Assembly (NCBI GenBank): GCA_046155625.1
Contig: JBJXFS010000112.1
Location: 46,841 to 110,840, forward strand
Length of the DNA stretch: 64,000 nucleotides
From: Verrucomicrobiales bacterium
GTDB taxonomy: Bacteria > Verrucomicrobiota > Verrucomicrobiia > Verrucomicrobiales > V1-33
Direction of reading: 5' to 3'
Shown: positions 20,036 to 54,600 of the stretch, piece after piece
Layout: each line of letters starts with the position of its first letter
How positions within the stretch are numbered: position 1 is the stretch's first letter
Program-made: the position numbers and the translations under genes
The notes under the pieces: generated by a model
What the model was told of the DNA's origin: nothing
Database searches by the model: none
Seen by the model: the letters and a program-made list of their open reading frames with translations, nothing else

Positions 20036-20117
20036 GTTTGATCAATCCCCAAGTCAACGGCGCCCGAGCCGCGCGGGGAACCGATGGTTTGAAATGCCGG
20101 CCCGACACCTGAGGTCG

Positions 20118-20878: not shown

Positions 20879-20989
20879 CCAGCGCGCAGCCAATCGCCAT
20901 TGAGGGTGGAAAGTGATTTGCCCGTCCCTCTGAGGTTTCGGCAATTCGAATCCGCTTGTCACTGCCAGGCTGGGCGGGTTAGTGGCCGC

Positions 20990-27600: not shown

Positions 27601-30600
27601 CTGACGGATCTGGCGGGGATTTTGCTGGACCAGGACGGGGACGGAGTGGCGGGGGAAACGCAGGACCGGTATGCGGGAGAATTTGTGATCGACGGGGCGG
27701 GGCCGTATGTGTTGCGGCAATCGGCGAGCGGGTTGGAACCACGCGGACTTTCCCAGATTGACGTGGTCTTTTCCGAAACGCTGTTGGCAGGATCGGTGCA
27801 GGTCAGTGACTTTACGCTCACGGGTCCGTCTGGGCCGATCCCCGTGACCTCGCTGAGCGCGGTGGCGGCAGACACGTTCCGAATCACGTTCGCGCCGCTG
27901 CCGGCCGATGGGCTGTACACGCTCAGCGTGGGCCCGGATCTGACGGACTTGGGAGGGACGCGGATGGACCAAAACCAGAATGGGACGGAGGGCGAAGTGC
28001 CGGGGGATGTGTGGAATGGGAGCTTCACTATCGATGCGGCGCCGCCGCGGGTGGTGTCGACCAGTTTGAGCAATCCGATGACGGCGCCGTTTGTTCGGTT
28101 CACGGTGAGTTTCAGCAAGGAGATTGATTCGGCGAGCTTCACGGCGGAGGACGTCGTGTACAGCGGTCCGGCGCGGCCGAGCATTCCGGTGAGCGTGAAT
28201 CGACTGAATGCGACGACGTTTGAAATTGTTTCGGGCAACATCGGGGCCGCCATTGGCGATTACACGGTGGTGATCGGTCCGGATGTGCGGGATCTGGCCG
28301 GCAATGCCCTGGACCAGAATGGCAATGGGACGGCGGGCGAGGTGGAGGACGTTTTTACGCAGACCGTCACGTTGACCCTGCCGGACTTAGTGGCTTCGGA
28401 AGTGAGCGCGCTGGACACGGCGGTGGCTGGGCAGGCGATAAGCGTGAGCTGGCAGGTCACCAATTCCGGCAACCGGGCGGCCGAGTCGCCGTGGAATGAA
28501 GTGGTGATCCTGTCGGCCACTGGCGCGCCGACGGGTCCGTCCAGTCAAGTAATCGTGGTGGGCACGCTGACGACGACCTCACCTTTGGCCATTGGCGAAT
28601 CCGTTGTGCGCACCTTGGATCTCACGCTGCCGGTGACATTGAGCGGCAACCTGACGCTCTTTGTCGTGTTGGATCAAAGCCAGGCGCTCCCCGAGCCCGA
28701 TGACGCCAATAACATCGCCTCGCGGGCGATCGTGGTGTCGGGCGAGGAGGTGAGGGCGGACTTGGTTGTTTCCTCGGTCAGTGGACCGACCACGGCGACC
28801 GGAGGGCAAAGAGTCTCGGTAACCTACACGGTCACCAACCAGGGGACAGGGGCGACATTGACGGGCGCGTGGGACGACCGATTGTATCTATCCAGCGACG
28901 AGACGTTGGGCGCAGGCGACATTCAATTGGGCGGACTTGCACGCAGTGGGATGCTGGCCGCGGGTGGAGTCTATACTGAAAACATGAGCGGCTCTCTGCC
29001 GCTGACCGCGGAGGGGACGTATTATTTGATCGTGTTCACCGATGCGGCCAACGAGACCCTGGAAATCGGCGCCGAGAATAACAATACACGGGCTTCTGGA
29101 GCGGTGACGGTGGTGGCGGCGCCGTCACCGGACTTGGTGGTGACGGCGGTGGTGCCGCCGGTGGGAGCGCTGGCCGGTCGCACGGCGATGGTGTCCTATA
29201 GCGTGCGCAATCAGGGGAGCGAATCGACAGGCAGCGGGTGGCTCGACCGGGTTTATTTGTCGTTGGATGCTTCTTTTGGAGCGGCAGATTTGATTCTGGC
29301 CACACGGACGCGACCGGCCTCGCTGGAGGCGGGCGTCACGTACACGGAAAATTTGGATGTGGTATTGCCGGTGGCATTCAGCGGTGAGTTTTACTTGATT
29401 GTGGTGACGGACGCGGCGGGGGAAGTGGCCGAGTGGCGAGGGGACGCGGAAACGAACAATGCGTTGGCATCCGCAGTGTTTACGGTCGCCCTGCCGCCCT
29501 CGGCCGATTTGCGTGTCGACGGTGTGGTGGCGCCGGCGCGGGTGATCGGGGATCCGGCCGATGCGCGGATCACTTGGACGGTGAGCAACCGTGGGAGTGC
29601 GGCGACGGCGGTCGACCGGTGGGTGGACCGGGTGATTATTTCGGTGGACGAATTGGTGGGAAATAATGATGACCGGGTGCTGGGCACGGTGGAGCATTTT
29701 GGGTTGCTGCCGGCGGGTGCGGGTTACACGGAATCGCTGGTGGTGCTCTTGCCCATCGCGACCAACGAGCGGTTTTACGTGTATGTGGAGACGGATGCGG
29801 GAGATGCGGTGAGCGAGGTGCCTAACACTGAATCGAATCAGGCGCGGGCGCCGGAGCGGCTGGAAGTGATGACCATTCCGTACGCGGACTTGGTGGTGAC
29901 GAGCGTGCAGCCGGTGTCGGCCACGGTGACGGCGGGCGGGAAGCTTGAGGTGACATGGAGTGTCAAAAACCAGGGCATTGGGGTGACGAGCGATCCGACG
30001 TGGATTGACCAGGTGTTTATTTCGCGGACACCGCAGGGCGCAGAGGCGATCGTGCTCTCCAACGAGTCGCACATCGGGAACCTGGCGGTGGACGGGGCGT
30101 ACACGCGCACGGCGAGCTTGAATGTGCCGCTGGGGATTGGGGGCGAGTATTATGTGTTTGTGCGCACGGGCATCAACGGGCCCTTTGAATTTGGACTGAC
30201 GGGCAATAACACGACGCGGGCGGAGCAGGTGATTGAGATCACCTTTGTACCGTTGCCGCAGGGGGATTTGGAGCCGACGGCGATTTCGGCGCCGACGGCG
30301 GCGGTGGATGGCGAGCGGGTGACGGTGACTTGGACGGTGCGCAACAACGGACCGGATGCGTACGAGAACGGGGTGGAGTGGAGCGACCGACTCGTATTGG
30401 TTGACCTGGGTGGGGGGCCGGAGCGGGTATTGGACAGCTTCCCGCGTTCGATTGGCCTGGGGGTAGGCAACACGTATACGCGTTCGGAATCGGTTCTGTT
30501 GCCGCAGGTGCAGGGGGTTTTCCGCATTGAAGTGCGCACGGATGTGGGGGCCGGGCTGGCGGAGGCGGTGGAAATGAACAATGCGCGAGCCAGCGAGCTC

Positions 30601-33600
30601 CTCACGATCTCGCTGCGGCCGCGCTCAGACCTGCGGGTGGTGGAGCTTTCCGCTCCCGAGGTTGTGACGGCGGGCACGGTGATTGATGTTATTTTCCGTG
30701 TGACCAATGGCGGCTCGGCGGCTACGCCCAGTGGCGGGTCGCGCTGGAGCGACCGCGTGTATTTGAATAACACACCCACGGTGGGCGGGCGGCTTTTGGG
30801 CACGCTGCAAAATGGATCGGCCTTGGAAGTCGGCCAAAGCTATCAGACGACAGACACCTTCACGCTGCCGCGGGCTTCGGGGGGCAATTTGTTTATCGTG
30901 GTGGTGGCCGACGCGCTCGGCCAGGTGGATGAATTTCCCCAGGAAGGGAATAACTTCCTGGCGCGGGCGATTGCGATCGATGTCACCCCGGTGCCGCCGC
31001 CGGACCTGGTGGTGACGGCGGTGGCGGCGCCCTCGGAGGCCTTTGACGGGAGTTCGATCACGGTGCGCTACTCGGTGGAAAACAAGGGGACGGGGCCGAC
31101 CGTACCCGGGTCGTGGAGCGACCAGATTTGGCTGACGCGGGCGAAGGACCGGCCCAATCCGTCGCGGGGCGACGTGTATCTGGGGGCGGCGGGGCACAAT
31201 GGGGCGTTGGAGGTGGGAGAGTTTTACGACGGGGTGGCCACGGTGCGGTTGCCGGTCAACCTGGCCGGGCAGTTTTTCATCACGGTGTGGGCGGACGGCG
31301 GCCAGGGCGTGTATGAAACGGCATTGAGCACGAACGTGAATCCGGACGCGCCCAATGACTTGGAGGGGAATAATTTCAAGGCGGTGCCGATGCAGGTATT
31401 TTTCACTCCGCCCTCGGACCTGGTGGTGACGCGCGTCGAGGCGCCGGCCACGGCGCGGGGGGCTGAGGAGGTGACCATTTCGTGGACGGTGGCCAACCAG
31501 GGGGCGGTGACGACCAATCGCGACCGGTGGGCGGATGCGATCTGGCTTTCCACCGACGATGACCTGCACGATGGGCTTGGCCAGCAGTGGCTGGTCTTTG
31601 CCGTGCCGCATGCGGGCACGCTGGCGCTCAATCAAAGTTACTCGGAAACGGCCACCTTCACGTTGCCGCCCTCGGCTTTCGGGAGCCACTTTATCGTGGA
31701 AACCAATGTGAACCCGGATCTGGCGGCGCCGCACGAGGATCTCTTTTTGGAGCAGATCAGGGGGATACTGCAGCGGGCCGAACAGGCGCTGGGTCGCCCC
31801 TTGGCGGAGTTTTCCGTGGCCAGCCTGCCGCGCCTGAGTGCGAGCCAGGTGCTGCAAATCCTGACGGGCGGGAGCAAACCCACGCTGGAACTGGTCTTTG
31901 AGGGGCCGTGGACCGATAACAACACGCGGGCGGCGGCCAGCACGGTGACAAACACCCCGGCTGACTTGGTGGTCAGTTCCGTGGTCACGGTGCCCACGGC
32001 CTTTTCGGGCGAGCGGGTGGAAGTCACCTACACGGTGACCAACGCCGGGGCGGCGGCCGTGTACGCGGGCACGGAGCGGTGGCGCGATTATCTCTTCCTT
32101 TCCCCGGATGCCACTTTCATCGGCTCGCGCGCCGGCCTGGTTGGCTCGGTGGTGCATCAAAATACGGGCGGCTTGGGGGTGGTAGCCAGTTACACCGAGA
32201 GCACGGCGATTTCGCTGCCGGCCGGAATCCAGGGCAGGTGGTACGTGCATGTGTTTACGGACATCAGGATTTTCCACGGGCAACCGGTTTTAAGCGGGCT
32301 CTCGCCGGGCAGCTACCCTGACTGGCCTCAAGCCTTCCGCGAGCGGGTGTGGGAGGGGACGGGCGACAAGACCAATAACTACGGGCAGACGTCGCTGTCG
32401 GTGACGTTAAGCGAGCCGGACCTGCGGGTGACCGCCCTGACAGTGCCGGCCACGGCGGCCTCGGGCAGCACGATTGCGGTGAGCTTCACGGCATCGAACA
32501 CGGGCACGCGCGCGACCCGGGTCGATCAGTGGCGCGACCGGGTTTATTTAAGTCTGGATGGCTCGCTGGATATTTATGACATTCTCTTGGGCACATTCGA
32601 GCGCGAGGGTGTGCTGGGGGCCGGGGAAAGCTACACGGTCACGGGCGATGTGCGCCTGCCCGATAACATCAGCGGGCCATTCACGCTGCTGGTGTACATC
32701 GATTCGCCCTTCAGTGTGGCGCCGGTTTATGGGCCGGTTTACCCGTTCCCGATCGCGGCGGGCAACCCGCGCCTCTCCCAGGGCGGGCACCCGATGGGGG
32801 CGGTGCACGAATTCCAGAATGAAGCCAATGACATCACGGCCCGGGCCATCGAGGTGACGCCGGCGCCGGCGCCCGACTTGCGCGTGACCAGCGTGAGTGC
32901 GCCGGCCCGGGTGCTCACCGGTGAAACCTTCACGGTCACTTACTCGGTGACCAACACGGGCCTGGGGGTCACCCCCGAACGCCAGAACACGTGGAGTGAT
33001 CAAGTGTGGCTTTCGCGCGACACATTCCTTGATGTGCGCAGCGACCACTATCTCGGTGAGGTAAAGATCGAACAAACCCTCCAGCCCAATGGCACGTACA
33101 CGGTGACGCGCACGTACCGGCTGCCGCGCGGGTTATTAGCGCCGTATTACGTGATCGTGCTGACCGACGCGCCCAATGGCTACGTGCCGATCGGGACGGT
33201 CAATGAAAGCTCCGAATCGAACAACGCGACCCCCAGCGCGGATCCGATGCTCATCGAACTGCCCCCGCCGAGCGACTTGCAGGTGACCCAGGTGGCGGCC
33301 ACTTCGAGCGGCCGGGTGGGATCGGCGGTCACGGTCAATTGGACGACAACCAATCGCGGGACGACGGCGGCCAGCGGGGTGTGGGCCGACGCGGTGTACT
33401 TATCGACGGACGCGACCTGGGATTACGGGGATTTGTTAATTGGGAGCGTGGATTTTGCCTCGCGCACTTTGGCGGGTGGGGCGAGTTACACGGGCAGCTT
33501 GACGGCACTGTTGCCGCCCACGCTGCCGGGCGACTACCGGGTGATCGTGCGCACGGATATTTTCGATGACATTTTTGAGGCGCAGAATAATGCCAATAAC

Positions 33601-36600
33601 GCGACCCCATCCACGGATGTGTTAGGCCTCAACGTGGACGCGCTGACCCTGGGCGTGCCGACCACGGCACGGCTCAGTGGGGCGCGCGCCACGCTGCTCT
33701 ACCGGATCGCGGTGCCGACGGGCGAAACCCTGGAGTTGCGGGCGAGCGGGGGCAATGCCTCGATGGCCTTGGAGTTGTACGCGGGGCATGAAAAGTTGCC
33801 CAATTCGATTGTGAACGACGCGGCCTTTGAAGGGGCGCTTTTGTCCGACCAGCGGTTGCTCATTCCGAGCACGGTGGCGGGGTCGTACTATCTCTTGGTG
33901 CGGGCGCAGAGCGCGCCCGCGGATTCGCCGGTCACCCTGCTGGCGCGGCTCCTGCCGTTTTCGATTACCAATGTGAGCCCGGACGCGGTCGGCGACGGTC
34001 GGTACGTGACGGTGACCATACGGGGCGCAAAATTTAGCCCGCAGGCGGCGGTCAAACTGGTGCGTCCGACCTTTGGGGAATTTGCCCCGGTGTCCTACCA
34101 GGTGATCGATGCCACAAAGATCATTGCGACCTTTGATGTACGCGGGGCGGTCAACGGCCTTTACGACGTGCGGGTGACCAACCCGGACGGGGCCAGTGTG
34201 ACCGATCCGCACCGCTTGCAGATTGAGGCGGCGCAGCCCAATGACGCGGCCATTGGGTTGGGGGGGCCGAGCCGGATTGACATCGGCGACTCGGCCGTGT
34301 ACGCCGTCACCCTGCAGGGGACCTCGAACCTGGACATGCCGTATGTGCATGTGGCCTTTGGTGTCCCGCGCATCCGGAACGAAAGCGGGCTCATTCGGGG
34401 CGAGGCCCTGGTCTTTAACGGGAATTTCGGCGGGGCGCCCGGGGTCGAGGGCGTGCCGTGGAGCACGCTCGATGGGGTGCTCAATCTCAATGGCCGACTG
34501 ATTTCCGGAGGCTTTGCGCGCGACTTCGTAGTGGCCGGGGTGGGGGGCTTAAGTTTTGTCGTGCAGACGTACCCTGGGCTGGAGGATGAACTGCGCGAAA
34601 ACCCGCGGTTTCTGGACAGCCTCTTGCCCGGGCAACTGGAGGTGGCGGCCTTCGACATGTGGATCATGGCGGCGGCCACGCCGATGACGGCCGCGGAATT
34701 CTTAGCCTACCAGCGGGCGCAGGCCGAGAAGTTTCGACTGGCGGTGGTGGCCGACGCGAATGCGCCGCCCTCGATTGCGGCCTTGGCGGCGGACGCGGGC
34801 AATTGGGTGAACTTGTATTTGGCGGCGTTGGGTGAGGCGGGACTTTTGCGAGCCGAGGACACGCCACCGGCGATTCGGGAGCGAGCGGAATTTTTCAGTG
34901 AAGTGTCGGCGGTGCTGGCCGGGGTGCTGGCGGGACCGGGCGGCGGGGCGGTGGTGGCCGACAACGACTTGCCCTCGGAGTGGGAGGCCTTTTTCGGGCG
35001 CATCAAAGGGTATTTGGGCGACACACCGACGGCGTACTCGGGTGGCACTACACTGCCGACGCAAGGGGAATTTAGCCTCGGGCTTTCGGCGCCGACGCAG
35101 TTTGTGGTCTACAAGGTGCGAGTGGGGCCGGAGGAGGACGTGGGGGTTTTGCCGGTGGACGACCCGAATTTGGCGGACTTCTTCGGACTCTCCGGCGCCT
35201 TGAGTCGTCGGCTCACGCTGCGGGGCCCGAGCGGGTCGGGGGCGGCGAATTTCGTGCCGCGGGGGACGAGTCTGCCGTACTTGATTAACTACGAGCATGA
35301 GAGCGGGGCGGCGGGTGCGGTGAAGGAATTGCGGGTCGTGCAGCAGATGGACCAATCGAGCTTTGACATTCGCAGTTTCCGCTTGAGTGACATCTCGCTG
35401 GGCTCGCTGAAAATCGATGTGCCGGACGGGCGCGGCAGCTTCACGGCGGAGTACGACTTTACGCAGAGCCGGGGATTTGTGCTCCAGGTCACGGCCGGCA
35501 TGGAAATCATCAGCGGCACGGCCACGTGGCTTTTCCGGGCGGTCGATCCAGTCAGTGGCCAACTGGTCACCGACGAGGCGATAGGGATACTGCGGCCCGG
35601 GGATAAGGCGTCCTTTGGCTACGGGATCAACGCGCAGGCGGAGGGGGCGCGCACGGGCGATGCGTTGAGTGGCAGTGTGCGGGCGATTCTCGATGGCGGC
35701 GTACCGCTGGACAGCAACACGGTCGTGAACACCCTGGATGCCACGGCGCCGGTGAGCACGCTGGCGGTCACCCCGGTCAGTCCCGGCCGCTACCAACTGC
35801 GCTGGGCGGCCAGTGACGCGTCCGAGGGATCGGGACTGGCCAGCCACACGCTCTTTGTGGCCATTGGTGGCGGGCCGTACGTGGCGCTCCTGCGGCACAC
35901 CACGGAAACCAGCTATAACTTCGCGGGCGAGGCGAGCCGTAATTACTCGTTCTTGGTTCTAAGCGCGGACCAGGCGGGCAACGCGGAGGCGGCGCCGGCG
36001 GGGCTCTTGGTGCCGCCGTACGTGGCGGCCGTGAATCTCGGGGCGTTGCCGGACTTTGGCGGCGGCGGTAGCGCGGATGACATACCGGTGGCCGCGCCGC
36101 CGCTCTCCACGACACCAGCCAACGCACTCTTTATCCGGGCCCAACTCGGGGTGGCGACGATATTGAGCGCCTCCAGGCCTCCGGCGTATGCGGCGGCGCT
36201 GGAACCCTTTACGCTGGGCGCCTTTGCGCGTGCGGTGCCGGGAAGCGGGGCGGACATCGGGCCCTTGGGACTCGCGTTTTCGGCTGATGGCCAGACGATT
36301 TTCGTGTCCGGCGGCGCGGGCCGGAGCACGCTGTGGCGTTTTGGGGCGGCGGGGGGTGAAGCCACGGTGGCCACGGCGCTCATCACGCTCAATCAGCCGA
36401 TTTACGATCTGGCGGTTGATGGCACGGGGCAACTGTGGGCGAGCACGGGCGGGCTGGGGTTGGTGCGCTTGAGCGCGGGCACGGGTGAAATCCTGGAATC
36501 CTTTGGCTTCGGGCAAAGCCTGGGGCTGGCGATGGGACCGGACGGGCGCACGCTGTATGTGGCGACCACGGCCGGGATCAGCGCCTTTGACACGCAGACC

Positions 36601-39600
36601 AAATCCTTCGCGGCTTTCTCGCGCACGCGGGTCGATGGGCTGGCGGTGGCCCCCGATGGCACGGTGTGGGGGACGCGGTGGCCGCGCGGGGGTGAAGTGC
36701 TGCGCTTTGACGAGCGGGGCCGGGCCGAGGTGGTGATCACGTTCGAGCATCAGGCCGAGGGGCTGGCCTTTGGTCAGGCGGGCACGCCGATGGAAGGGCT
36801 GCTTTTTGTCAGCCACGACGCGGGCGGGTACGTGACCATGGTGGATTTGGCCTCGAGGCAGTCGATCAAAGTGGCCACCGGTGGCGGGCACGGGGAATTT
36901 ATCAAGATCGGCCCCGATGGCCGCCTGTACTTGACGCAACCGGGCCAGGTCGACGTGCTCCAGCCGGTGGTGGCACCGGAAATCATCGCCTCCACGCCGG
37001 TGAACAACTCGGGGGCGCTGCCACCCGTGCAGCGGGTCACGCTGACCTTTAACCAGAACATGCGCACGACGGGCGAGGGGTCGGTGCTGGACTTTACTCA
37101 TTATACATTGACCTCCACGGCGGGTGGGGGCGCCACGGCGGGTAGTGTGGCGATCCCAATTGGTTCGGTGAGTTACGATTTACTCTCACGCACGGTGACG
37201 CTGACCTTCGCCCCCCTCATTCCGGGTGACTACACGCTGCGGGTGGCCGCCGAACCGCGCAGCGCCACCGGGGTGAAACTGGCCGCGCCTTATTCGCTGC
37301 GCTTTACGGCCTTGGAGGAGGTGCTCTCGCTGCAGCCGACATTCACCAACACGCGGCTTAACCGCGCCGAGGGCACGGTGTCCATGGACATCGCGGTGAC
37401 CAACACGACGGGCTTTGATTTGAGTGCGCCGGTGCGGGTCGTATTCCGCGGGTTGGCTGGCCTGTCGAATGTATCGCTGGTCAATGCGGACGGGGTAACG
37501 GGCGACGGCGCGCCGTTCCTCAATTTGGCGGCGCCCAATGCGGCGGTGCGACTGGGCAATGGCCAGAGCACGGTGGTGAGCACGATCACGATTTCCAATC
37601 CACAGGCGGTGGCGATCACTCTCGATCCACTCATTCTGGTCACCGCGCCGCCCAACCAGCCACCGGCCTTTGCCACGGCGCCGGCGGCCACGGCCACGGC
37701 GGGCGGCACATACCGCTATGAGGCGCGGGCCAGCGATCCGGATGGAGCCAGTGTGGCCTACGCGCTGGTGTATGGGCCCCGAGGTGCTGTGGTCAATCCG
37801 TCGACGGGGGTGCTGACATGGACCCCAGGCGCGGGCGACGAGGCTTCGGCCATTTTTGAATTGCGCGCGTACGACGCTCGAGGCGGTTTTGCGGTGCAAA
37901 TGTGGCAGGTGGCGGTGAGCGGCGCCAATCGCGCGCCGGTGTTGGCTCCGATCGCCACGCCAACGGTGGCCGAGGGGCAGGCGCTGAGCGTTCCGGTGAG
38001 CGCCTTCGATCCCGAGGGAGCGGCCTTGGTGTACTGGGTGGATAACTTGCCGGCGGGGGCGGTTTTTGATGCGCGCCAAAATGCCATTGTATGGACGCCG
38101 GACGGCACGGCGGCGGGCCGGTACGAAGGGGTGAGAGTTTTCGCGAGCGACGGGGCGTTGGAGTCGTCGATCACCTTTGACATCGTGGTGAGTGACGCGC
38201 CGCAGGCGCCGGTCCTGCGCCCGCTCCTGGAGCGCACGATGCGCGAGGGCGACGCGATGGCCTTCGCCCTTGAGGCCACGCTCAGTGGCGGCGGTTCGCT
38301 CGTTTACGAGGCGCCGCTCCTGCCGCCGGGCGCCTACCTGCATCCCGCCACCGGAGTCTTCGAGTGGACGCCGCGCTTTGACCAGCACGGCGAGTACGCC
38401 ATTGAATTTATCGCCCGCAACGGGACGGCCGAGGCGCGCGCCACGCTGGAATTGACGGTGCTCAACGTGAATGGCCAGGTGCGCTTGGTGCGCCAGCCGG
38501 AGTTTGCGATTTTTGAAGGTCAATCACTCAGCCTGCGCGTGGCCGCCAATGACCCTGAATATCCCTTTTTCAACGCGGCCGCGCTGGGGCAGTCGCCCGA
38601 CGGGGACGTGGAAAATGGCGAATTTATCCCGCCGATCACGCTGAGTCATTCCGCGCTGCCCGCCGGCATGACGTGGGAGGCGGCCACGTGGTTGCTTTCC
38701 TGGACGCCGGGGGCGACGCAGGCCGGGCGGTACACGATTACGTTTGCCGCGCAGGACAATGGCGATGGGACGGGCACGCCGACCACGGACACGCGGGAAC
38801 TGGTGGTTACGGTGATCGACGCGAACATGACACCGGTGGTGGCTCCGATCGAGGCGGTGAGCCTGCCCGCGGGCCAAAGCCGCACGATCCCGGTAAGTGC
38901 GAGCGATGGCGATGGCGGGCCGCTTACGCTGCAGGTGGTGGGCTTGCCGTCCTTTGCCACTTTCACGGACAATGGCAACGGCGCCGGGGTGATCACCGTG
39001 GTGACCCAGCCGGGCAACCGGGGTGATTACGTCCTGAGTGTCCTGGCGACCGATGATGGCAATGGCGGGCAATCCGCGCCGCAGGCGGGGCTCTTGCAAT
39101 TTGTGTTATCGGTGACTTCGGCCAACGAGCCGCCGGTGATGGCGTCGGTGGGCCACAAGATCGCCGTGATTGGCCAGGAATTGGTCCTCAACGTCACGGT
39201 GACCGACGCCGATCAGGACACGCTGACTTTCGCCGCGGATGGATTGCCAGCGGGGGCCACCTTCGCGGGATTGACCAGCTACGGGGTGGCCCAGTTCCGG
39301 TGGCGGCCGGAAGCGGCGGCGACGGGCGTGCACACGGTGACTTTGCGAGTGAGCGACAACGGGGCGAATGGCACGGCCCCCGTCTTGAGCGATCAGGAGA
39401 CCATCACCCTCACCGTGCGCGCGGCCAATGCGGCGCCCGTGCTCGGCCCGGTCGGCAACCGCACGGTGAGCGCGGGCACGGAAGTCGTGATCCAACTTTC
39501 GGCCACCGACGCCGATGGCGATGCGTTAAGCTACCGCGCCACCGGCGTGCCCACGGGGGCTTCTTTTGACCCGGCCACCGGTCGTTTCAGCTGGACCCCG

Positions 39601-42600
39601 CGCGTGGTGGAAGCGGGCGCGTACCTCATGCGCTTTGAGGTCTCCGACGGGGCCGGGGTGACCGGCGATCCGATCACGCTGACAGTCACCGCGGCCAACG
39701 TGCCACCGCTCTTCGCGCCACTGCCGCCGCAGCGCACCGAGGAGGGAGTGACCCTCGCCTTCACGGTCGCCGCCGGGGATGGCAATGGCGATGCGCTCAC
39801 GTATTTTGTCGAATCCGGCCTGCCGGCCGGAGCCATCTTCGATTCGGCCAGCCAGTTCTTCCTCTGGACACCGGCCTTTAATCAAGCGGGGCCGCATGTC
39901 GTCACCTTTGCCGCCACCGACCCGGCCGGGCTGAAAGCCACGCTCGCCGTGACCATCGCGGTGAGCGACGTGAACCGCCCGCCAACACTGCCCACTCTGG
40001 GCGGACGGCAGGTCGTGATTGGGGAGGCGTTTTCCTTTGTCGTGGCCGGCGGCGACCCGGACGCGGACGATGCGGCCGGCCTGACGTATGCGGCCGAGTA
40101 CTTGCCGAGCGGGGCGACTTTTAATGCGGCCACGGCCACGTTGACCTGGACGCCGCTCGCCTCGCAGGTGGGGACGCACTTTGTGCAGTTTGTGGTCAGT
40201 GACGACAGCGGCGCCACGGCGCGCGGCACACTGAACCTGGAAGTGGTGGCGGCTCGTTCGGGTCCGGTGGTGCGCATCGATTTTACCCCCGGGTTCCCGG
40301 TGGGGGCGGGCACACCGGTCACGGTGCAACTGCAGACAGCGGGCACCACCCCGATTGCGAGCGTGGAAGTGCGCGTGGGTGGTGTCTTACAAACCCTCGA
40401 TGCCCAGCGGCGCTTTGTCTTCACGCCCACGGCCCCAGGCCACTACGACATCGTGGCGCGGGTCACCGACGTGTCTGGCGTGCTCACCGAATCATCAACC
40501 ACCCTGCGCGTGCGCGATCTCGCCGATGTGGCTGCACCGCAGGTGAGCATCTCGGTGCCGCCACCCGGCGCCATCCTGACCGCTCCCACCCCGGTCATCG
40601 CCACCGTGGCCGACACCAACCTCGACTTCTGGTCACTCACGCTATCCAGTATCGATGGGTCATTCACGCGCGCCCTCGCCTCCGGACGCACCGGATTTGC
40701 CGACGCCACCCTGGCCACGCTCGATCCGGGCGCTCTGCTCAATGGCGGCTACGCGCTGACCCTCGTGGCCACCGACATGGCCGGTCGCCGCGTAGAAATC
40801 ATCCGCATGATCGAAATCGACACCGCCACCAAACCGGCCGCCTACGCGCGCAGCGAGTCGGACCTTTCCGTCACCCTCAATGGCCAAGCGCTCACGCTGA
40901 CCCGCGTCTACGACAGCCTGCGCGCGGGTCAAAGCGGGCTGTCCGGCTACGGGTGGTACTTCCCGCTGCTCGAAGCCCGCCTGACGACCAACCGCCTGCC
41001 GACCGGTCGCGAAGCCGACGGTCTCTTTACCCCGCACGCCGAAGGGACACGCCTCTACCTCGATGCCCCCGATGGCACAAGCCTCGCCTTTGCCTTCGCG
41101 CCGCAATCGCTCGCCCTCGGCGGCCTGAGCGCCCACACCCCCGCCTGGAACGCCCCCGCCGGATGGTCGCTCACTTCGACCCACGCCGTGCTGCAAAAAG
41201 TCGCTGGTGAATACTTCGATGTTTCGACTGGCCTGCCGTACCACCCGCAATCATACGAACTATCTGAAGACGCCACCGGGCTGACGTACCGCTACGAACG
41301 CGGCACCTCGGGCATCTACGCGCTTTCCGAAATCACCACCGCCCCCGGTGACCGGCTCGTCCTCTCCGATAGCGGACTTGTTTCCGTGAAATCGGGCCAG
41401 CGGCTCGGGTTGACCCGAGACACGGCCGGCCGCCTGACCGCCATCACGATGCCCGACGGCGCCCAAGTCCGCTACGCCTTCACCGCGTCGGGCGACCTGC
41501 TCTCGGTCACGAAAACCGCTACCGGCGCCCGCGCACTTTACGGCTACCGCACCGAACACGACCACCTCCTCACCGCACTCGCTCCGCCCGCGCCGGAAAA
41601 TGGAACACTCATCGATTATGACGCCGCCGCCCGGTTCCTCGCTGCCCATTCCGTCCCCGTTCGCCTCGGCTCCGCCACCGAGTTCCTTGGCCAAGTCCGG
41701 CCCGTCACCTCCCCCACCGGTTCGACCGACCGCTTCCTCTTCCTCTTAAGCCCCGGCGAAATTCGCTCGCCTGTCAGCGGCCAACTCACCCTCGGGTTCC
41801 AAACAATCGGAGCCACCGACGCCGCCACCGTCAGCGGCGCCGCCATCGCCGGTGCCACCATAGTCGACGGGGACCGCCGCGTGCGGTTCTACACGTTCCA
41901 CACCGCCGGTCCGTTTGTCTTAGGCCTCCCATCCGGCTCTTACTCGCTGGAAATTTTCGTCCCCGGCGACATCGATGGCGACCGCGACGTCGATGGCACC
42001 GATACCCTGACCGCCCAGGCCGACGTCAACCGCGATGGCGCCATCAACGCCGCCGACACCGCCCTGCGCGACGCCACCTTCGGGTTCATCGCCAATCGGC
42101 CACCGGCCGTCACCCCGGTCCCCGTCACCACCATCCGCGACTTCGCCGTCAACGTGAATGTGAAATCATTCGCTGCCGACGCCGATGGCGACCCGCTCCG
42201 GTTCTTCGTTTTCGGCGCCACCAGCGGCACCGTCGCCCTGCTCGACGCCACCACCGCCCTCTTTACCCCGGCCCCAGGGTTCACCGGCCAGACCAGCTTC
42301 ACCCTCGCCGCCGATGACGGCCTCACCCTCGCCACCGCCACCATCACCGCCACCGTCGCCAACGTCACACCCACCCGACTCGACCTCGCCCAGCGCGACC
42401 CGGTCATCGCCGCCCCGGGCGCCACCACCACCCTCATCGTCACCGCCACCTTCTCCGACGGCCAGACCCGCGCCGTCCCCACCAGCCTCATCACCTTCTC
42501 CTCCCTCAACCCAGCCACCGCCGCCGCCACCGCCTCTGGCACTGTGTTAGCCATCGCCAATGGCTTCGCCACCATCAAAATCGACGCCCTCGGCCTTACC

Positions 42601-45600
42601 ACAGCCACCGCCGTCACCGTCGGGGCGAGAGATGCCAGGAATATCGATGTCTTTCCGCTCTCGTATACGCTCGCCCCGGGCGAGACGCGCCAATTCCTCA
42701 TACGGCAACGCGTTGAAGCGGGAATCAACGACCTCGCCTCCGCGGCCGCGGGTACGCGCTACTTCCTGTCCACTTCAAGCTTCGGCACTATCACCGCAAA
42801 TGGGCTATTCACCGCCACCGCCCCAGGGCGCGTCGACATCACCGTCGTCCAAGGAGGATTGAGCGTGCTCGTCCCCATGCTTGTCACCGTGCCCCAGACC
42901 GGTCAAGTGACGCTCAACGCCGAGGGCGGCCTGCTTTCGTCCGGCACCGGGATCACGGTGGGCGTGCCACAAGGCGCGCTGAAAGAACAGACCGCCATCG
43001 GGGTAAATGCGCTGCAGGAAAGCGACTTCGATTACGGCGCGCCTTACGGGTGGGCGTTTGCGGGCGGCTTCGAACTAGACGGATTCGATGAGCAGACGGA
43101 CTACCTCCCATTCAGCGTGATCATGCCGGCCCCCGCGGGCGTGACTCCAGGAACCGTGCTGCCCCTGCTGCAACCGACCACGGTGAGGCACTCGGATGGG
43201 ACAACCGAGGAAGCTTGGTTCCTGATCGACACGCTGCTGGTGGGGAATGATGGCTTCATGCGCACCACGTCGCCGCCTAATCTCGGCCTTTCGGCGCGCT
43301 CGTATTCCGGCCCTCTGAGTATCGGCCTCAACTACACGCAAGCCCCCCGTGCCATGGCCGCCGTGGGGGGAGCCGGATTGACCGGGCTGGTATTTGCCAT
43401 CGGGGACATGGCCCGAAGCCTCTTGACGCTTGGCTCGACCACGCTGGGATCGCGCGGCGTGAAGGGCCTGGGTGATCCGGTCACGGCTCCAGGGGTGGTC
43501 GACATGGATATCGCCGGCGGGCCAGGACTGGGCGAAACCAAAGTGTATGCGGCGGCAGGCATCTTTGGAGATGTGTACATCCCGATGGTCACGGGATTTG
43601 ATGTGCGCCTGACCTTCCGTGTCGCGACCAACGACGGATTGACTCGCGTCACGGATTCCACGGTGCTACTGGCGCCAGGGGAATACAAGACTCTCGGCAT
43701 CGGCCAGGCGTTCCGGCTGCCGGTTTCTTCGGTGCAGGAGATTCCGCCGCCGGTGGTCGCGAGCGCCGAGTTCCGGTTTGACAATTCCTCCGGCAGCCCG
43801 AAACCGGAAGTCCTGCTTACCGGGCTTAATTTCCTCCTCCGCAGCCCGTGGGAACTCGCCCCCGATCGCGATCTGGGCAACCGGGTGCTGGACTTGTACG
43901 TCACTTTCGAGATCGGAGGTCGAGACAGCACCAATCCCGATGGCACCCCACTCTACAATGGCGGACGCGATGTCACCGTGCTCGGCAGCCTGCTGAAGAT
44001 CGAGGGCAACGGAACAATCGCCTCGCCCCATGTGCTGACCGTCCCTCTGCCGGCCGGCATCAGCTTGGCCGATGCCTTCATTACCGTGACTCGGCCAACT
44101 CAGGAACCGCTCGATGGCCGCTTTGACCGCCGGGAATTTACCAGCAATCCGGCGCGCATTCTCAGCCAATCTCGTTACGCCTTTGCGCCGAATGGCGGAG
44201 CGGATCTGGTGTCGGTGATCGACACCCGCGCCACCACCGTGGTGGACAAAATCAGAGTGTCGTTCCCGAGCGAAATCGCCCGAATTCTCCTGGCCGCGAT
44301 TCCCGGCAAGTCGTCACTCTCGCCCCGGCAAGCGGTCGCCACCAACAACGGCGCCCGCGTTTACGTCACGCTGAACGGGGCCGGCGCGATCGCCGTGCTT
44401 GATGCCGTGGGCCTTCAGCAGGTGGACGTGGATGGCGAGGTGGCGGGCGTCCAAAGCCTCCTGCTCCCCAATGGGGCGCGCCCGTTCAAGCTGGCCCTGT
44501 CGCCGGATAACACATTGCTGTACGCCACCGATGAACTCGCGGGCACGGTGTATGTTATCGACAGTAATCCGTTCTCCGACACCTATCACACGCTGCTCAC
44601 CACCGTCTCCCTGCCCAAAGAACTGACGCCGCTCGGCCTCCGTGGTGTGGCCGTAAACGCCACCGGCACGGAGGTCATCGTCGCCGCGCCAGGCCGCGGA
44701 CTTTTCGGCCAATACGGAAAACCGGATGGGCATCTGATCACCTTTGCGTACCCATTGCAGAAGGTTTCTCCCGATGACGAAGGATATACCGCCATCGCGG
44801 TGGGTCCCGACCCATTTGATGTGATAGCCACCGAGGATCCCAATGTGATCCTGTTCACCGACCGTCTGAGCTCGACGCATGCGCTCGGCGTACTCCGCAA
44901 AGTCGGACCGGCTTACGATCCCGGATTTGTGGATGTCACGTCGTTCGGGATCATCCCGAGGATTGTCGAGGGGAGGGCGACGCAGGTTTTTGGGGTTCGC
45001 AATGCGCAGGGAGTCGTCTACGTACCGGCCAATTCATTGTCTGAGCGGGTGGTGGGGCAGGATGATGACGGGAATCCGGTCAAACTCGGCGAGCATCCGG
45101 CGTACGCCTTCATCACGGGCTTTAAAAAATTCGTCCCGGACGATCCCTTGGTCGACCCAGCGCTGGCGCCGGTCTGGGTGTACAATGCGTTCTTCACTTC
45201 GCCAGCGACCGGCATGACCATTGGGACACCGCTGGCGGCTGGCGGCAATATCGGGATCATTCGCAATGTGCTCGGGGATTTTGCCGATCCACTGGATCGT
45301 CCACGCCTCGTGGCCGCCACGTCACCAATCATCCACTCGTTCCCGGACAACCTCTCACTGTCGTTACAAACTGGCCACCTCTATGCAGCCTATTCCGGGA
45401 TCAATTCCGTAGTCGTTTACGATTCGGCCATGATGCTCCGGACGATCGAGAAGGCGGTTGATGGTCCGCCACTCCGGTCCTGGTCGCAATTTCCGGAAAC
45501 GGAAGCCTCGATCGTGTATCGCGAACTGTCTGGCCTGGTGCGCGGCCCCTTGTCCACGGTACCCATCGACGTGGTTGACCGGTCGGTTATCGTCCGCGCC

Positions 45601-48600
45601 GACATCCGTTTCTACAACACGGTCCTCCTTGATCAGGTTTTTCTGCTCGACGCGAATGGCAAAGAAGTTCTCGACAAGGACGGAAACAAAATCCTCATCG
45701 CCGCGGGTAGCGGCTTCCTGGTTTATGGCACGCCGACCCGGGGGCTGGACGGGACCACGCCCAATCGATTCGCTCCGATTCCGATGCCGCGTCTGCCTCG
45801 GGGGATCGTGGTGCAGCCGATCCTGAAGGATACGGCCATGCGCCTCAGTACCACGCCACTGAACCATAACCCGTCGCTCAATTCCTGGCCGAACAATCCG
45901 ATGACCGTTGAGGCCGGCAAAACATCCTCGGTCGAAGTGCAGACGGGTGCCTTTCACGAGATCCACAACTTGGTGACCTATCGCTCGCTGGGCACGGCTC
46001 AGGGGATCGTCCTGCACTACGATTCGCTGCGTGCCAACGACACGGTGCTGCATTACCTGGCGTTCTCCGGCGCCGAACTGCAACGGCTCATTCAAGGAAA
46101 GAACCGCATCAACCTCAGCCTGATCGCTCGCGTGACGGCCCGGCAGGGAGAAACCGTCGTCACGGTGAAGGGATTCCCGGCCGAACAGGCCGTCCCTGTC
46201 GGCTTGCTGGGCAATGAATTGTTCTTCCGACTGCCTGAGGAATTGAAGGCGGACCAAACCTACGGGGCGGGCATCCCAATCGATTTCGGCGACGCCGACC
46301 CCGGACTGTACACGCTGGTGGTCGAGTTCGGCCTTTTTGAATTGATCAATGGACGCTGGCAAGGCCGCTGGTTCGAAGAAACCCGTCCGCTGCCCTACCT
46401 GCGTGATCAGGAGGGGATTTTCGGGGTGGGCTGGGGGATGGCGAATTATTTCCGGATCATTTCAGGGGAATCCGGTGCCTTGCTGATCAACGGAAACGGA
46501 ACCGAGCAAATCTACCTCGCTCCCGACAATCCAAAGCAGCCGTGGGCGTCGCTGGCTCTCGACTATTCCACCCTGCGCTTGAACGACAATAATGTCTTCG
46601 AGCGGGTCATGCTCGACGGCACACGCTACCTTTTCGACCGCGAGGGATTGCTCGAGAAAGTCATCGACCGCAATAACAACGAGACAATCTACGCGCACTC
46701 AGGAGGTAAACTCATCAGCATCACCGATCCGGTGGGCCTGCGCACTGAGTTCACCTATGCCGGCGAAAGGGTAGTGTCGATCATCGATCCAGCCGGCAGA
46801 ATGACCAAGTTCACATACTCGGGAAACAACTTGGCCTCAATCACTGATCCGGATCAAAGCAATCGTACGTTTGCGTACGAGAATCCGGATTTCCCCGAAC
46901 TGATGACCTCTCAGGTCCACAAGCGGGGCAATGATCCGAACGAATCGTTCCCCTCGTCCTTCAAGGAGGAAATCGATTACGACGACTACGGACGCGTGAT
47001 CGGCGGCCTGCGCATCGACGAGAAATGGTTCACGCTCGAATACGCGCAGAGCCTGCTGATCGCGCCTCTCGAAGACGTGGCCGATCCGACCAAACGCGTC
47101 AATCTGGCCTCCCTGACCGAAGCCGCAGATCGGACTGACGCCGTCATTTCGACATACATCAACTTTAATGGGAAGACGATTCTTTTCTACAACGATGCCA
47201 ATGGGTCGTTCGTCTCGTCCGAAGAGGCGGAGGGTGGAAAGACACGGACGTTTGACCGGGATCCGCAGGGACTCCTCATCGCCGAGGAGGACGAAATTGG
47301 AAACCGCCGCGAGTACGCCTACGATGCCTTCCGCAACGTCGAGGCGGTCACCGACTACCCGAATGGATCTAACGCCGTCACCCGCTTCTACACGTACGGC
47401 GCGCCATTCAACTCGCTTCGCACCGAAGAGGATGGTCTTGGTCGTCAGACGACCCGGGAATACGACACCCGAGGGAATCTGATTGAGGTCACCAAGTTCG
47501 ATCCCCTGGCCCCCGAAGGATCACCGCAATCGGTCACTACCCGGTTTTCCTATGACATCCGAGGAATGGTGCTGAGCGAAACCGACGGACGTGGGCTGAC
47601 GACTTTCCACACCTACGATCAGTACAGCCGCCTCACGGGCACGCTCCATCCGGATGGCAGCACCATCGGCTACCAATACGACACGCTGGCCGGGAATCTG
47701 AATCGTGTCACCGACGAGGAGGGATTCGTGGTGGAAATGGTCTATGACGCCATGAATCGCCTCACCGGAGCGCGGCACTTCCTCGGTGGCAACCTCGGCG
47801 TGGCCGAAGCTGCCTTCGATTACGACGCTGAGGGAAACCAAATCGTCGAGAATAATCGGAACGACGTTCTTACATTGCGCCGATTTGACACGATGGACAG
47901 GGTGGTCAGCGAGGTCGTGGACCCAGCGGACCTCGCCCTGGAAACGCTCCACGCTTACGAACTTGGGGACATGCTTCTTCCTTATAGCCCGCCGACCGGT
48001 CCGGGATTCACCTACCACTTCATCCGCGACCCCGATGGTTATTTTCATGCCATGGTTTTCGATGACCGCGGGAATCTGCGCTACGAGATCGATCCGCTGG
48101 GGCAGACGACCGAAATTCTCTATGACGGCGCTTTCCGCCGTTCCGGCGTGAAGCTGCCAAACGGGGGAGTGATCAACGAGACCATTGACGGCCGTGGCCG
48201 CGTTACAGTGCGCACCGGCCCGACGGTGGAACGCGAGGAATTCGTCTACGACGACGAGGACCGCCTGAGTCAGCACACAGTGTTCAATGACGGCGAGAAC
48301 CAAGTGTGGCGATACGCCTACAATATCTTCAACAAAATCGCTCGGATCATCGACCCATTAGATCACGTCTTCCGCTTCGAGTACGACGGCAACGGGAATG
48401 TCGTCCGCACGATCGAATTCGCCGGACTCCAGGCCGAGTTGGTTACGCAGTACACATTCGACGAGCGGAATCGCGAGATCGAACGGCTCGTCGCCAACGC
48501 CGCCCTGTGGAAAACGGTCTATTGGAAAACGGGAACGGTCAGGCAAACGATTGACCCGCGTGGGGATGACTACGTGACGTCGTTTGAGTACGACGGCCTG

Positions 48601-51600: not shown

Positions 51601-54600
51601 GACATCCTCGGCAATGTCACGGAAACCCGGTATCTCGGCAATTCCACCGTGGTCGAAGTCGTCAATCCAAGACTGTTCCTCAGCACCATGGTTTATGATG
51701 CGCTGGGCCGGCTGGTCGAAATGCGCGATCCCTCCGGCAAGAGCGTCTTCTATGGCTATGATGCCGTTGGAAATCGGATCTTCGAGCGCGACCGCCGGGA
51801 CATCATCACACGTCGCGATTTCGACGCGCGCAACCTCCTGCTCAGCGAAACCCAGGCCGCGGGCACACCGGATGAACGGGTTTCCCGCTTCCAATACAAT
51901 GAGATGGGGTGGTTGGTGACAGAGATTCCGTGGCGCGGGGTGGATTACCGCACCGAGTACGTCATGGACGGGCATGGTCGAATCCTCACGGTACGCACGT
52001 TCTCGGGCACACAGATTGATGAGTCCCACATGACGTATGATGCTTTGGGCAACCGGACAACGATGACCGATCCGCGCGGCGCCTATTATCGTTGGGAGTA
52101 CGACTATGATGGATCCAACCGTGTCGTCGAGATCCGCTCGCCTGCAGGCACGCCCGCGGCTCCTCAGCAACTGACCGAGCGCTTCGTTTACAACGACAAC
52201 GGCGACACCGTGGAGGTGCACGATGTGGAAGGCAACGTCATCACGCGGTCCTATGACTTGGTCGGACGGCTGACGTACGAATCGCGGTCCAACGAGCTGG
52301 GCGGGGAGCTCGAATGGTCGTGGGAATTGGTCGACGATCCGCAGGTGGGTCACCACGTGATTGAGCGCGACCCGCTCGGCACTATTGCTTCCGTGGTCTA
52401 CTACGACGCCCTGAGTCGCGTCGTCCGCATCGAAAACCGCACGACCGGCACGCGAACCACTCAATACGACGCCAATGGCAACGTCGTTCGGGAAATCGAC
52501 GGCGCCACCTCCAAGGAGTTTGTCTACGACTCACTGGATCGCCCGGTCATCGAGCGTGACGCCCTCGGGCGGGAATGGCATTACAGCTACGATGCCAACG
52601 GCAATCTGCGGCAATCCACCGACCCCGAGGGACGGTTCCGGCGTCACACCTACGATTCCCTCAACCGGATCGTTCTCACCGAGGACCGGCGGGGCACAGT
52701 GCAGCGGCTGAGCTACGATGCCGCCGGCAATGTGGTGACCATCACGGACGGCGCCGAGAATTTGACCACGCGAGTCTACGACGGACGCAACCGCCTGATC
52801 CGCGAATTGAATGCGTCAGGAACCCGCCAGATGACCTGGGACGGGATCGGCAATTTGATCGAATCCGTCGATCGCAACGGCCGGACCATCCGCTACACTT
52901 ATGACGCCCGGGGGCTGACGCTCACCGAGGAGTGGGTGGTCGGAAACAGTGTGGTTCAGACCTTCGCCTTCACCTACGACAATGCCGCGCGGTTGATCCG
53001 GGCGACCGACGGCAAGAACGAATTGACATACACCTATGTCACCGATGGCACGGGCCGCCTTCTCTCGGAAACATCCAATCACCTGGGCACTTCCGGCCTC
53101 TTCCGCATCGATTATACCCCGGACGTGGTCGGCAACGCCCGCCAGATCGACCTGCTCGTCGATGGAATCCTGGTTGCCTCCAACCGGATGGACATGGATG
53201 CGGTCACCAACCGATTGATGGCGATCACCCAGAGCGGACCTGGCCTGACGAACAAGTCGGTGCGCTTTGGGTACACTCCGGGCTATTTGCGCGTGGAGAG
53301 TGTCACGCGTTCGGCCGGAGTAGGAGTTTCCGTCGTGACTCAGATCGGCTACGACCAGCGGAATCTGGTCAGCTCCATCGTCCATCGCACCGGGACCGTG
53401 ATCAACCGGCACGATTACACCTATGACGATGCGCACTTCATTACCACCGCCACGGATCTGTTTGGGAAGCGCACTTACGCATACGACGCTTCCGGTCAGC
53501 TCGCTGGGGTCGATCACACAACTCCCGGTTTGACCGACGAAGATTTTTCGTATGACCTCGCCGGCAATCCGCAGGGGCAGGGGTATGTGCGCGGGGCCGA
53601 CAACCGCCTGCTGCAAACGCCTGAATTCAGGTACACCTACGACGCGGAAGGAAATCTGATCGAGTCCCGCAAATCGACCGATGGATCAAGAACCGTCTAC
53701 GAGTGGGATCACCGCAATCGCCTGATCGCGGTCCGGGCCTTCAATGCGGCTGGCACGATGCTTCGGCTGGTCACCCATGAGTATGACCCGCTGGATCGCC
53801 GGATCACGATGACCGTGGAAACGTTCGGCCCAGTCGGGACCACATCGATCCGCCAATTTGCCTATCTGGACGACGATGTCTGGCTTGAATACGCCGAAGG
53901 CGCCGACGGCCTGCGCACGCTCGACGCGGTGTACCTGCATGGCCCCGGCGACGACCAAGTCCTGGCCCGCGAGGGCGGCGGCCGAGTGTACTGGTACCTG
54001 GCCGACCGGATTGGAAGCATCCGCGACATCGTTAATGGGCAGGGCGCCGTGCTTGACCACATCCAGTACGACGCCTTCGGTAAAATCCTCCAGCGGACGA
54101 ATCCCAGCCTGCCGAACCGCTATTTCTTCACCGGTCGCGAATTCGACGCCGCGACCGAACTTTATTTCATGCGGGCGCGGTATTTCGACCCCGCCACCAA
54201 GCGCTTCATCTCGGCGGACCCCATGGGCTTCGCCGCCGGTGACGCGAACCTGTATCGATACGCCGGAAACAACCCGGTGCGTTTCACGGATCCGCGCGGC
54301 ACGGAGGCCAAAGACTCGAATGACCAAGGATGGTTCGCCTCTGCGAAAAACATTTTCAGCAATTGGTTCAGTGGCGGCGAGAACAAATCGGCCGCCGCCG
54401 AGAAGCCGAAACAAGGGGCCTGGGACTTGATCCGCGGCTTCACCCAGTCCTTCATCGTGGACCCCGCCCGGGAGTTGCTCGGCACGGTCTTCGACGTCGC
54501 CGCCATGGGAATCGGCCTAGTGGGTACCACGGCGATCGACTCGGTTTTCGGGACGAAACTGAGCGACAAACTGGTACAAGGGAACTGGCCGATCAGCACC

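Follow-up and report, generated by a model that had tools for sequence, protein, structure and literature searches.

Two giant genes with long YD-repeat arrays

We analysed a 64,000-nucleotide stretch of a Verrucomicrobiales genome (assembly GCA_046155625.1, contig JBJXFS010000112.1, positions 46,841 to 110,840), called the window below, which contains two very long open reading frames (ORFs) on the + strand, A and B. Each carries a long array of YD repeats closed by an Rhs core. ORF B (21697..59988, +) encodes 12,763 amino acids (aa). ORF A (2..20035, +) is its paralog, collinear with it from B residue ~6470 onward; the frame of A is open at the left edge of the window, and the protein is therefore incomplete. 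The array of B lies at 46609..54303 (+) and comprises residues 8305-10869 (2,565 aa, with ~218 β-strands estimated), position 46609 being the first base of codon 8305 and position 54303 closing codon 10869 (...FTDPRGT). The array of A lies at 5651..13471 (+) and comprises residues 1855-4461 (2,607 aa, including the Rhs core at 13241-13468), with position 13471 closing codon 4461 (...DRDPSGT). In both proteins the start is the first recognizable YD hairpin and the end is the DPxG motif of the Rhs core. An earlier interpretation made from the letters alone, which we call the sequence-only reading, had given the same boundaries for B and the same end for A; its start for A, position 5650, is one base before codon 1855.

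The stretches in A and B are real, continuous YD arrays. The Pfam RHS_repeat profile (PF05593) matches B with an E-value of 3e-182 and A with an E-value of 3e-192, with 26 separately significant stretches in each, and TIGR01643 (YD_repeat_2x) matches them at 3e-117 and 1e-132, respectively. A hairpin hidden Markov model (HMM) built from the two arrays identified 68-69 hairpins per array, spaced mostly 15-30 aa apart, and the interior gaps between its matches are not above ~75 aa, which we cite as evidence of continuity. RHS_repeat is the sole Pfam family inside either array, and the Pfam scan revealed no inserted domain in A or B; the Pfam TEN_YD-shell family remained below scoring on both proteins in the copy of Pfam used. 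The claim of the sequence-only reading that both arrays are continuous over this length, and its proposal to count the repeats with profiles, are thus borne out by RHS_repeat, YD_repeat_2x, the hairpin HMM and the closing core.

Two parts of the arrays are poor in hairpin matches. The first ~300 aa are sparse in them, and in B this part includes a variable insert (residues 8447-8514) with low AlphaFold confidence. The hairpin HMM also leaves a stretch of ~170-190 aa unmatched a little upstream of the core, at B 10424-10592 and A 4010-4203. The last ~590 aa of the array are collinear with residues 750-1295, the last third, of the RhsA structure 7q97, and because the hairpin-poor stretch falls inside this collinear region we regard it as a normal part of an Rhs shell. 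The A and B arrays are collinear over their whole length with 45% identity; the array length is therefore old and maintained, and not an artefact of assembly. The G+C content is 0.56-0.58 across the first half of each array (windows 6000-10000 and 46000-50000) and 0.64-0.67 in most of B upstream of the array, and the lower value probably reflects the amino-acid composition of the repeats.

The Rhs core of B (54067..54300, +; residues 10791-10868) scores 79.6 bits with TIGR03696 (Rhs_assc_core) and that of A (residues 4385-4460) scores 67.8 bits, with a cut-off of 32.5. The catalytic Arg, Asp and Asp are kept in the B core (RARYFDP...SADPMGF...FTDPRG/T), and the R/D/D residues of A and B align with R2103, D2116 and D2140 of BiTLP (numbering of PMC13018210), the protein that gave the best sequence match to the A/B core (E 5e-18). 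BiTLP and Tc toxins use this Arg and the Asp pair for catalysis (PMC13018210). The last core motif is DPRGT in B and DPSGT in A, and not DPxGL.

The core is followed in B by a segment of ~800 aa (54304..56715, +; residues 10870-11673), which is the putative cargo, and in A by the corresponding segment at 13472..15925 (+; residues 4462-5279). The first ~150-160 aa after the core (to B 11027) align between A and B; the rest of the segment has no detectable A-B similarity and no Pfam or PDB match. Here, ~115-155 aa after the core, B has its strongest hydrophobic stretch (residues 10986-11022, window 54652-54762). A has hydrophobic stretches at 4495-4513 and 4557-4596, ~35-135 aa after the core, and of 12 family members checked, 10 have such a segment 50-170 aa beyond the core. 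The segment of A also contains, at ~5016-5090 (window 15100-15400), three tandem copies of a ~25-aa motif, RAALGGISLG.PLTGAERAARATGEA, which is absent from B.

The C-terminal module of B (56716..59985, +; residues 11674-12763) combines a metalloprotease-like HEFGH motif with PKD domains and is 59% identical to that of A. The motif is zinc-protease-like, with a Pfam Matrixin match at just E 0.045 and a weak match to NF038122. The ~400 aa with which the module opens (windows 56716-57900 in B and 15926-17100 in A) also occur in P0132 and in loci L002-L023. In every family member checked, 700-900 aa separate the core from the start of these conserved ~400 aa, and an Aquabacterium (betaproteobacterial) protein has the same module at the same spacing. 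The whole post-core region of A and B is 1,900-2,200 aa long.

Directly before the array of B is a conserved pre-array β domain (46042..46608, +; residues 8116-8304), which has invariant alignment columns and the family signature FGxGWG...LLxxGNGxEQ. It is modelled by AlphaFold as β structure with a predicted local distance difference test score (pLDDT) of 50-77 and is a candidate for the N-terminal plug or anchor of the shell. The β-propeller-like region upstream of it (44194..45846, +; residues ~7500-8050) was recognized from weak matches to Pfam SGL (E 0.012) and Lactonase (E 0.06) and to the propeller subunit 1jmx_B in the PDB (E 0.13). Sequence searches of the PDB with the pre-array and post-core regions returned nothing beyond weak propeller and PKD matches. 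From its N-terminus, B thus consists of the ...EALEPRILLSA motif, repeated β-helix units, Big_5 and CARDB domains, He_PIG, Big_9 and cadherin-like immunoglobulin (Ig) domains, the propeller-like region, the pre-array domain, the YD array, the Rhs core, the variable segment and the HExxH/PKD module. The N-terminus itself (window 21697-21900) is a basic stretch followed by ...YEFEALEPRILLSAAAAA; motifs of this kind open very large secreted proteins of Planctomycetes and Verrucomicrobia. Residues ~200-1500 (window ~22300-26200) contain ~7 tandem units of ~198 aa, several of them near-identical (e.g. NVRVYNSATLTIPAGLVIKMAGGLFQALNSSGAGTLIVQGT...), which look like recent internal duplications. The Pfam Beta_helix match is confined to residues 1521-1626, adjoining these units.

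Array length among related proteins

An exhaustive phmmer search of 1.84 billion representatives, with 1,200 aa of the array as the query, returned 61,715 proteins at E<=1e-3, of which 9,265 reach E<=1e-30. Most of the best 150 matches have lengths of 2,300-7,800 aa. We compared their arrays by a common yardstick (hairpin matches of at least 3 bits, separated by gaps of at most 200 aa), which gives strict arrays of 1,855 and 1,871 aa for A and B; by this measure 19 of the best 150 matches have arrays of more than 2,200 aa, up to a maximum of 4,353 aa. Measured from the first strong hairpin to the end of the core, A and B span 2,344 and 2,335 aa, and the median for the 112 core-bearing proteins among the best 150 is 1,696 aa. 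Spans of at least 2,000 aa occur in 15 of these 112 and spans of at least 2,300 aa in four, all of which belong to the A/B family and include A and B themselves. An Anaerolineae cluster (HNT76362.1) has 3,040 aa from first hairpin to core end, and proteins of 6,100-6,300 aa from Marinobacter and Microbulbifer have contiguous arrays of 3,275-3,445 aa without a recognizable core.

Verrucomicrobiota metagenome-assembled genomes (MAGs) encode proteins whose collinearity with B extends from the propeller-like region as far as the core. A scan for the pre-array signature in one genome per GTDB species found 62 related loci. They include Verrucomicrobiota MAGs, the closest of which, labelled Akkermansia sp., is 58% identical, and the Planctomycetota isolates Pirellulaceae SH501, Stieleria magnilauensis, S. 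sedimenti, S. mannarensis and Rhodopirellula sp. SM50, as well as Phycisphaera and Lentisphaerae. B has 2,608 aa and A 2,650 aa between a short anchor motif and the end of the core; in 13 loci with that motif the distance ranges from 2,406 to 2,718 aa. With an HMM of the anchor domain, which replaced a hairpin walk-back from the core because the hairpin HMM trained on A and B is less sensitive on planctomycete members, the distance is 2,431-2,746 aa in 20 loci from Verrucomicrobiota, Planctomycetota and Lentisphaerae. Other proteins with the anchor domain have spans of 1,237-2,276 aa and post-core regions of 86-334 aa.

Among 39 proteins that share the pre-array domain, array span and post-core length are correlated (Spearman 0.73, p 1e-7). 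Long arrays accompany long post-core regions in these relatives, which fits the earlier suggestion that the size of the array bears on the size of the cargo. Six proteins have spans of 2,090-2,623 aa yet a short toxin. A scan for inserted domains, which covered four of them (L030, L032, L033 and L037) and left out L038 and L046, found a domain inserted between anchor and core in all four: PPC in L032, an FG-GAP propeller in L033 and L037, and CARDB in L030. These four were not retained as counter-examples. L033 and L037 (Planctomycetota and Pirellulaceae MAG loci) are single-chain YD proteins with the same pre-array domain and with FG-GAP repeats before the Rhs core, a layout that resembles a TcB-TcC fusion, in planctomycetes.

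The long uninterrupted array defines one conserved family, with a long post-core region, in bacteria of the Planctomycetes-Verrucomicrobia-Chlamydiae (PVC) group. The sequence-only reading had asked whether arrays of this length might simply be common. The answer is partly yes, since the family is PVC-wide and even longer arrays exist in other phyla. The long form is real, conserved and structurally uncharacterised; other genomes share it, and the databases contain longer arrays. We found no paper on long-array YD proteins of this kind in the literature searched.

Predicted fold and shape of the shell

Two 1,200-aa end pieces, B 8040-9239 and B 9680-10879, were modelled with AlphaFold (AF2) from alignments of A, B and five or six orthologs (7-8 sequences). 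The C-terminal piece was predicted with a pLDDT of 83.5 and a predicted TM-score (pTM) of 0.72 and has 98 strands, nearly all in hairpins. The N-terminal piece (pLDDT 74, pTM 0.56) has the β-rich pre-array domain followed by 82 strands. In Foldseek comparisons with the PDB, each piece aligns end to end with complete Rhs cocoons of type VI secretion systems (T6SS): the C-terminal piece with 8qjb_A (E 1e-52, 1,201 columns against a 1,037-residue target, target-normalized TM-score (TMt) 0.51) and the N-terminal piece with 8qjc (TMt 0.60, root-mean-square deviation 10.8 Å, 1,097 columns against 1,048 residues). Each piece thus contains about as much spiral as a single canonical cocoon. The modelled halves have the Rhs β-spiral fold and not some other fold, as the sequence-only reading had supposed. 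T6SS Rhs proteins ranked first, teneurins and BiTLP next, and the Tc BC shells and SGS1 were weaker; the Tc BC shells gave TMt 0.15-0.29 and a query-normalized TM-score (TMq) of 0.24-0.48 with the C-terminal piece, and TMt 0.21-0.25 and TMq 0.34-0.39 with the N-terminal piece. The weaker Tc BC match is a weak hint at a narrow width, the longer Tc chains depressing TMt. Because both halves match T6SS cocoons over the Tc shell, the extra material more likely lengthens than widens the shell.

At 11.7 residues per strand, the estimate is ~218 strands per array. SGS1, the largest shell for which we found a strand count in a paper, has ~100 strands in almost four turns (PMC9935623). The cage of Tse15 consists of residues 335-1395 (1,061 residues) in three layers and measures 55 x 100 Å (PMC11461821). 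The solved chains in the Foldseek comparison are 964-1,084 residues long for T6SS Rhs and ~2,100 residues, including the propeller, for TcdB2-TccC3, and sequence and fold searches of the PDB revealed no comparable uninterrupted array in any chain. No solved Rhs/YD structure checked has even half the shell material of the A or B array, which amounts to ~2.4 canonical shells. The size comparison made in the sequence-only reading holds broadly, the published T6SS cages checked being slightly smaller than it gave.

The sequence-only reading had offered two shapes for the array, an enlarged chamber or two consecutive shells. No second core or internal plug was found in A or B, the core profile matching each protein once. 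The hairpin matches are regular through the middle of the array, between the two modelled pieces, and the ortholog alignments have YD-type invariant columns throughout and reveal no conserved seam in mid-array. BLAST of the whole array against itself returned the identity match alone, and a windowed self-comparison gave diffuse identity of 26-33% at many offsets without a twofold (~1,280-aa) duplication. The self-similarity histograms of A and B have peaks at offsets of ~290-325, 540-640 and ~900 aa, the first of which is partly forced by the masking used. These peaks are suggestive only, and may reflect a super-repeat of ~300 aa, about one turn, which is near the ~350 aa per layer of Tse15. 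We see no mark of two separate shells, whether a core-like plug inside the array, a non-YD insert or a clean twofold duplication. We tentatively favour one elongated shell of ordinary width because no seam was found and because the match to the narrow T6SS cocoons is better.

Our preferred reading, to which we assign a probability of roughly one half, is that A and B are very large polymorphic-toxin-like proteins, secreted or displayed on the surface of a PVC bacterium (most likely one of the Verrucomicrobiota), and that each array forms one elongated, cargo-holding shell. What the analysis establishes is the repeat content and its continuity, the core motifs, the Rhs-like fold of both halves and the conserved length; the single lumen, its turn count, encapsulation, cleavage and the action of the cargo are inferred. 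The ~2,600-residue array (~110 YD hairpins) would fold into the single-sheet β-spiral of known Rhs shells, giving one continuous elongated shell of roughly canonical width and ~7-9 turns, which would run from the pre-array domain to a far end capped by the Rhs core. Because its aspartyl-protease residues are kept, the core should cut the chain after DPxG, and the downstream segment would stay inside the shell. The variable post-core segment, which measures ~800 aa in every family member and opens with strongly hydrophobic helices, would be the shielded cargo, at least in part, and the conserved HExxH/PKD module would probably lie outside, like the distal C-terminal parts of SGS1 and the teneurins. 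For the PVC long-array family as a whole we propose, more tentatively and at somewhat less than even odds, a single-chain Rhs tube of ~8 turns and >200 Å that stores a membrane-active cargo of ~800 residues for release after autoproteolysis.

Several points weigh against this reading. The models are two 1,200-aa pieces from shallow alignments of 7-8 sequences, and the middle ~440 aa lie outside them; the width and closure of the shell and the chamber shape of the whole array are extrapolations. TM-scores of 0.45-0.60 indicate the same topology and not the same geometry. AlphaFold may fold any YD fragment of ~1,000 aa into a learned cocoon shape, and because of this possible bias the cocoon-like form of each half is weak evidence on the whole array. 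By a rough estimate of volume, scaled from the SGS1 chamber (30 x 110 Å for ~230 residues), the lumen would fit several hundred loosely packed residues, which is plausibly some or all of the ~800-aa segment though not clearly as many as 800, and not a post-core region of 1,900 aa. Span and post-core length are uncorrelated (rho 0.09) among the 112 core-bearing proteins of the best 150. The post-core segments match no toxin domain family, and no confirmed immunity gene was found. The two small ORFs after A are both below the curated cut-off of every family.

The array could instead be an open β-solenoid stalk, a stiff hollow rod that would keep the HExxH/PKD module at a distance from the cell without enclosing anything. 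The great size of the proteins, their adhesin-like character and their many Ig-like domains would suit a stalk, and their post-core region (1,900-2,200 aa) is far too long for full enclosure and includes PKD domains, which normally fold outside. The nearest precedent for an open tube is a preprint that predicts Rhs-like hollow β-tubules of ~1,500 aa in other PVC giant proteins, those of Omnitrophota (10.1101/2023.11.21.568195). We nevertheless consider a stalk unlikely and favour encapsulation, because an Rhs core with an intact protease triad ends the array in every family member, because hydrophobic helices directly follow the core, as in SGS1, and because the ~800-aa segment keeps a fixed length despite its variable sequence, which suits a cargo better than a linker. 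The array could also be two or more consecutive chambers, canonical-sized cocoon-like lobes in series with a constriction between them. The end-to-end alignment of each 1,200-aa half with a complete T6SS cocoon and the total of ~2.4 canonical shells of material agree with such an arrangement. The same halves may owe their cocoon shape to the modelling of fragments, however, and with neither an internal core-like plug, a non-YD insert, a conserved mid-array seam nor a twofold duplication signal, we think consecutive chambers distinctly improbable.

In a single wider chamber, the extra hairpins would go into broader turns of the kind found in Tc BC, and the number of turns would not rise. The Tc BC and SGS1 shells are indeed wider and hold more cargo than those of T6SS Rhs and teneurins (PMC9935623). 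Both modelled halves fit the T6SS cocoons better than Tc BC or SGS1, and the suggested ~300-aa super-repeat is near the residues per layer of Tse15; this evidence is indirect on both counts, and it leaves a wider chamber a slim prospect. That the length is an artefact of assembly or gene calling is a natural concern with a repetitive gene, since repeat arrays are prone to mis-assembly, but here it is refuted by conservation and we give it practically no weight: the repeats are just 26-33% identical to one another, the paralogs are collinear at 45% identity across the full array, and the same length recurs in 20 independent genomes, complete isolate genomes among them.

Neighbouring genes and known systems

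Opposite the final ~265 codons of ORF A, the - strand carries a 262-aa ORF (window 19241-20029). The protein it encodes shares 37% identity (E 7e-8) with a small protein whose gene lies just downstream, at 20019-20744 (+); locus L014 has a homolog of this small protein directly behind its giant gene. The C-terminal tail of A past ~residue 6340, which is odd and of low complexity, may therefore be read-through and not real coding sequence. The small protein of 20019-20744 ends in ...VIPEPRIPTLLLAAAVSLLVRRSRIR, which resembles a PEP-CTERM sorting signal; no NCBIfam model matched it. Between A and B there is also a 250-aa ORF (20816-21568, +) with hydrophobic segments and a sub-threshold match to the STM3941 family (E 1e-4), which could be an immunity-type protein for A and is listed here as a candidate. 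The first ORF of at least 150 aa downstream of B encodes a phosphoribosyltransferase, and the region after B (window 60223-63924) contains, besides this gene, a sulfatase gene and a 3-keto-disaccharide hydrolase (DUF1080) gene on the - strand. PVC genomes often encode sulfatases and DUF1080 proteins, and nothing about these three genes suggests a link to the toxin-like genes.

A and B share YD repeats, an aspartyl-autoprotease core and the β-spiral with the T6SS Rhs effectors (Tse15, 8uy4; RhsA, 7q97; RhsP, 8h8a/b; and the Salmonella bongori and Advenella Rhs proteins, 8qja-d). Their arrays are ~2.4 times longer (2,565-2,607 aa, compared with 1,061 aa in Tse15), and their post-core regions are 1,900-2,200 aa, whereas those of the T6SS effectors are ~150-200 aa. 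B, with 12,763 aa, has many Ig-like domains and the propeller-like region upstream, and no PAAR, VgrG or clade domain appeared when B as a whole and the in-window part of A were scanned with Pfam.

The mosquito proteins SGS1 and SGS4 (8fjp, 9on3) are likewise very large single-chain YD proteins with an Rhs core. In SGS1 the shell conceals the transmembrane helices that come after the core, and the more distal C-terminal domains lie outside it (PMC9935623); A and B have a similar layout, with a hydrophobic stretch soon after the core and distal domains beyond. The SGS1 span of ~2,400 aa includes ~1,000 aa of inserts (propeller, CBM, lectin domain and wedge), whereas the A/B array has none, and the ~100 strands of SGS1 compare with ~218 predicted for A/B. 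The cocoon of the Tc BC complexes (TcdB2-TccC3, 4o9x; YenB-YenC2, 4igl) is a large YD shell with an Rhs core protease that encloses an unfolded toxin. A and B also have a large YD array closed by an Rhs core, and for them we propose enclosure; neither SpvB and TcdB-mid domains nor an FG-GAP propeller were detected by Pfam in or beside their arrays.

BiTLP (9ifo/9pt5) and the metazoan teneurins are surface-displayed multi-domain proteins that combine adhesion domains, a YD shell preceded by a propeller, and the core R/D/D residues; the layout of A and B is similar. The shell of the bacterial teneurin-like proteins (TLPs) has three layers and their C-terminal domain averages ~15 kDa (PMC13018210). 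The A/B array is far longer than three layers' worth, and the propeller-like region is weakly SGL/lactonase and not NHL by Pfam. No FN-plug or TIP domain was detected in A or B, in searches made without the HMMs of the TLP authors.

The Anaerolineae HNT76362.1 cluster and the Marinobacter/Microbulbifer proteins (e.g. WP_237062868.1) have uninterrupted arrays as long or longer, up to 4,353 aa. They are different families from A and B, with 23-29% identity at the level of the repeats only, and the gammaproteobacterial long-array proteins have no recognizable Rhs core, whereas A and B have one.

The solved YD shells (T6SS Rhs, Tc BC, teneurins, bacterial TLPs and SGS1) have three to four turns and hold at most ~200-300 residues. 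If our reading is correct, the PVC long-array family would be a new size class of protein-encapsulating shell, with a cargo several times that of any known Rhs, Tc or teneurin shell, and would give a first functional handle on some of the PVC "giant genes" that are routinely counted yet unexplained in genome descriptions. The family raises the questions of how far an Rhs spiral can extend and whether the length of the shell sets the size of the cargo, which can be tested with the orthologs in cultured planctomycetes (the Stieleria species, Rhodopirellula sp. SM50 and Pirellulaceae SH501).

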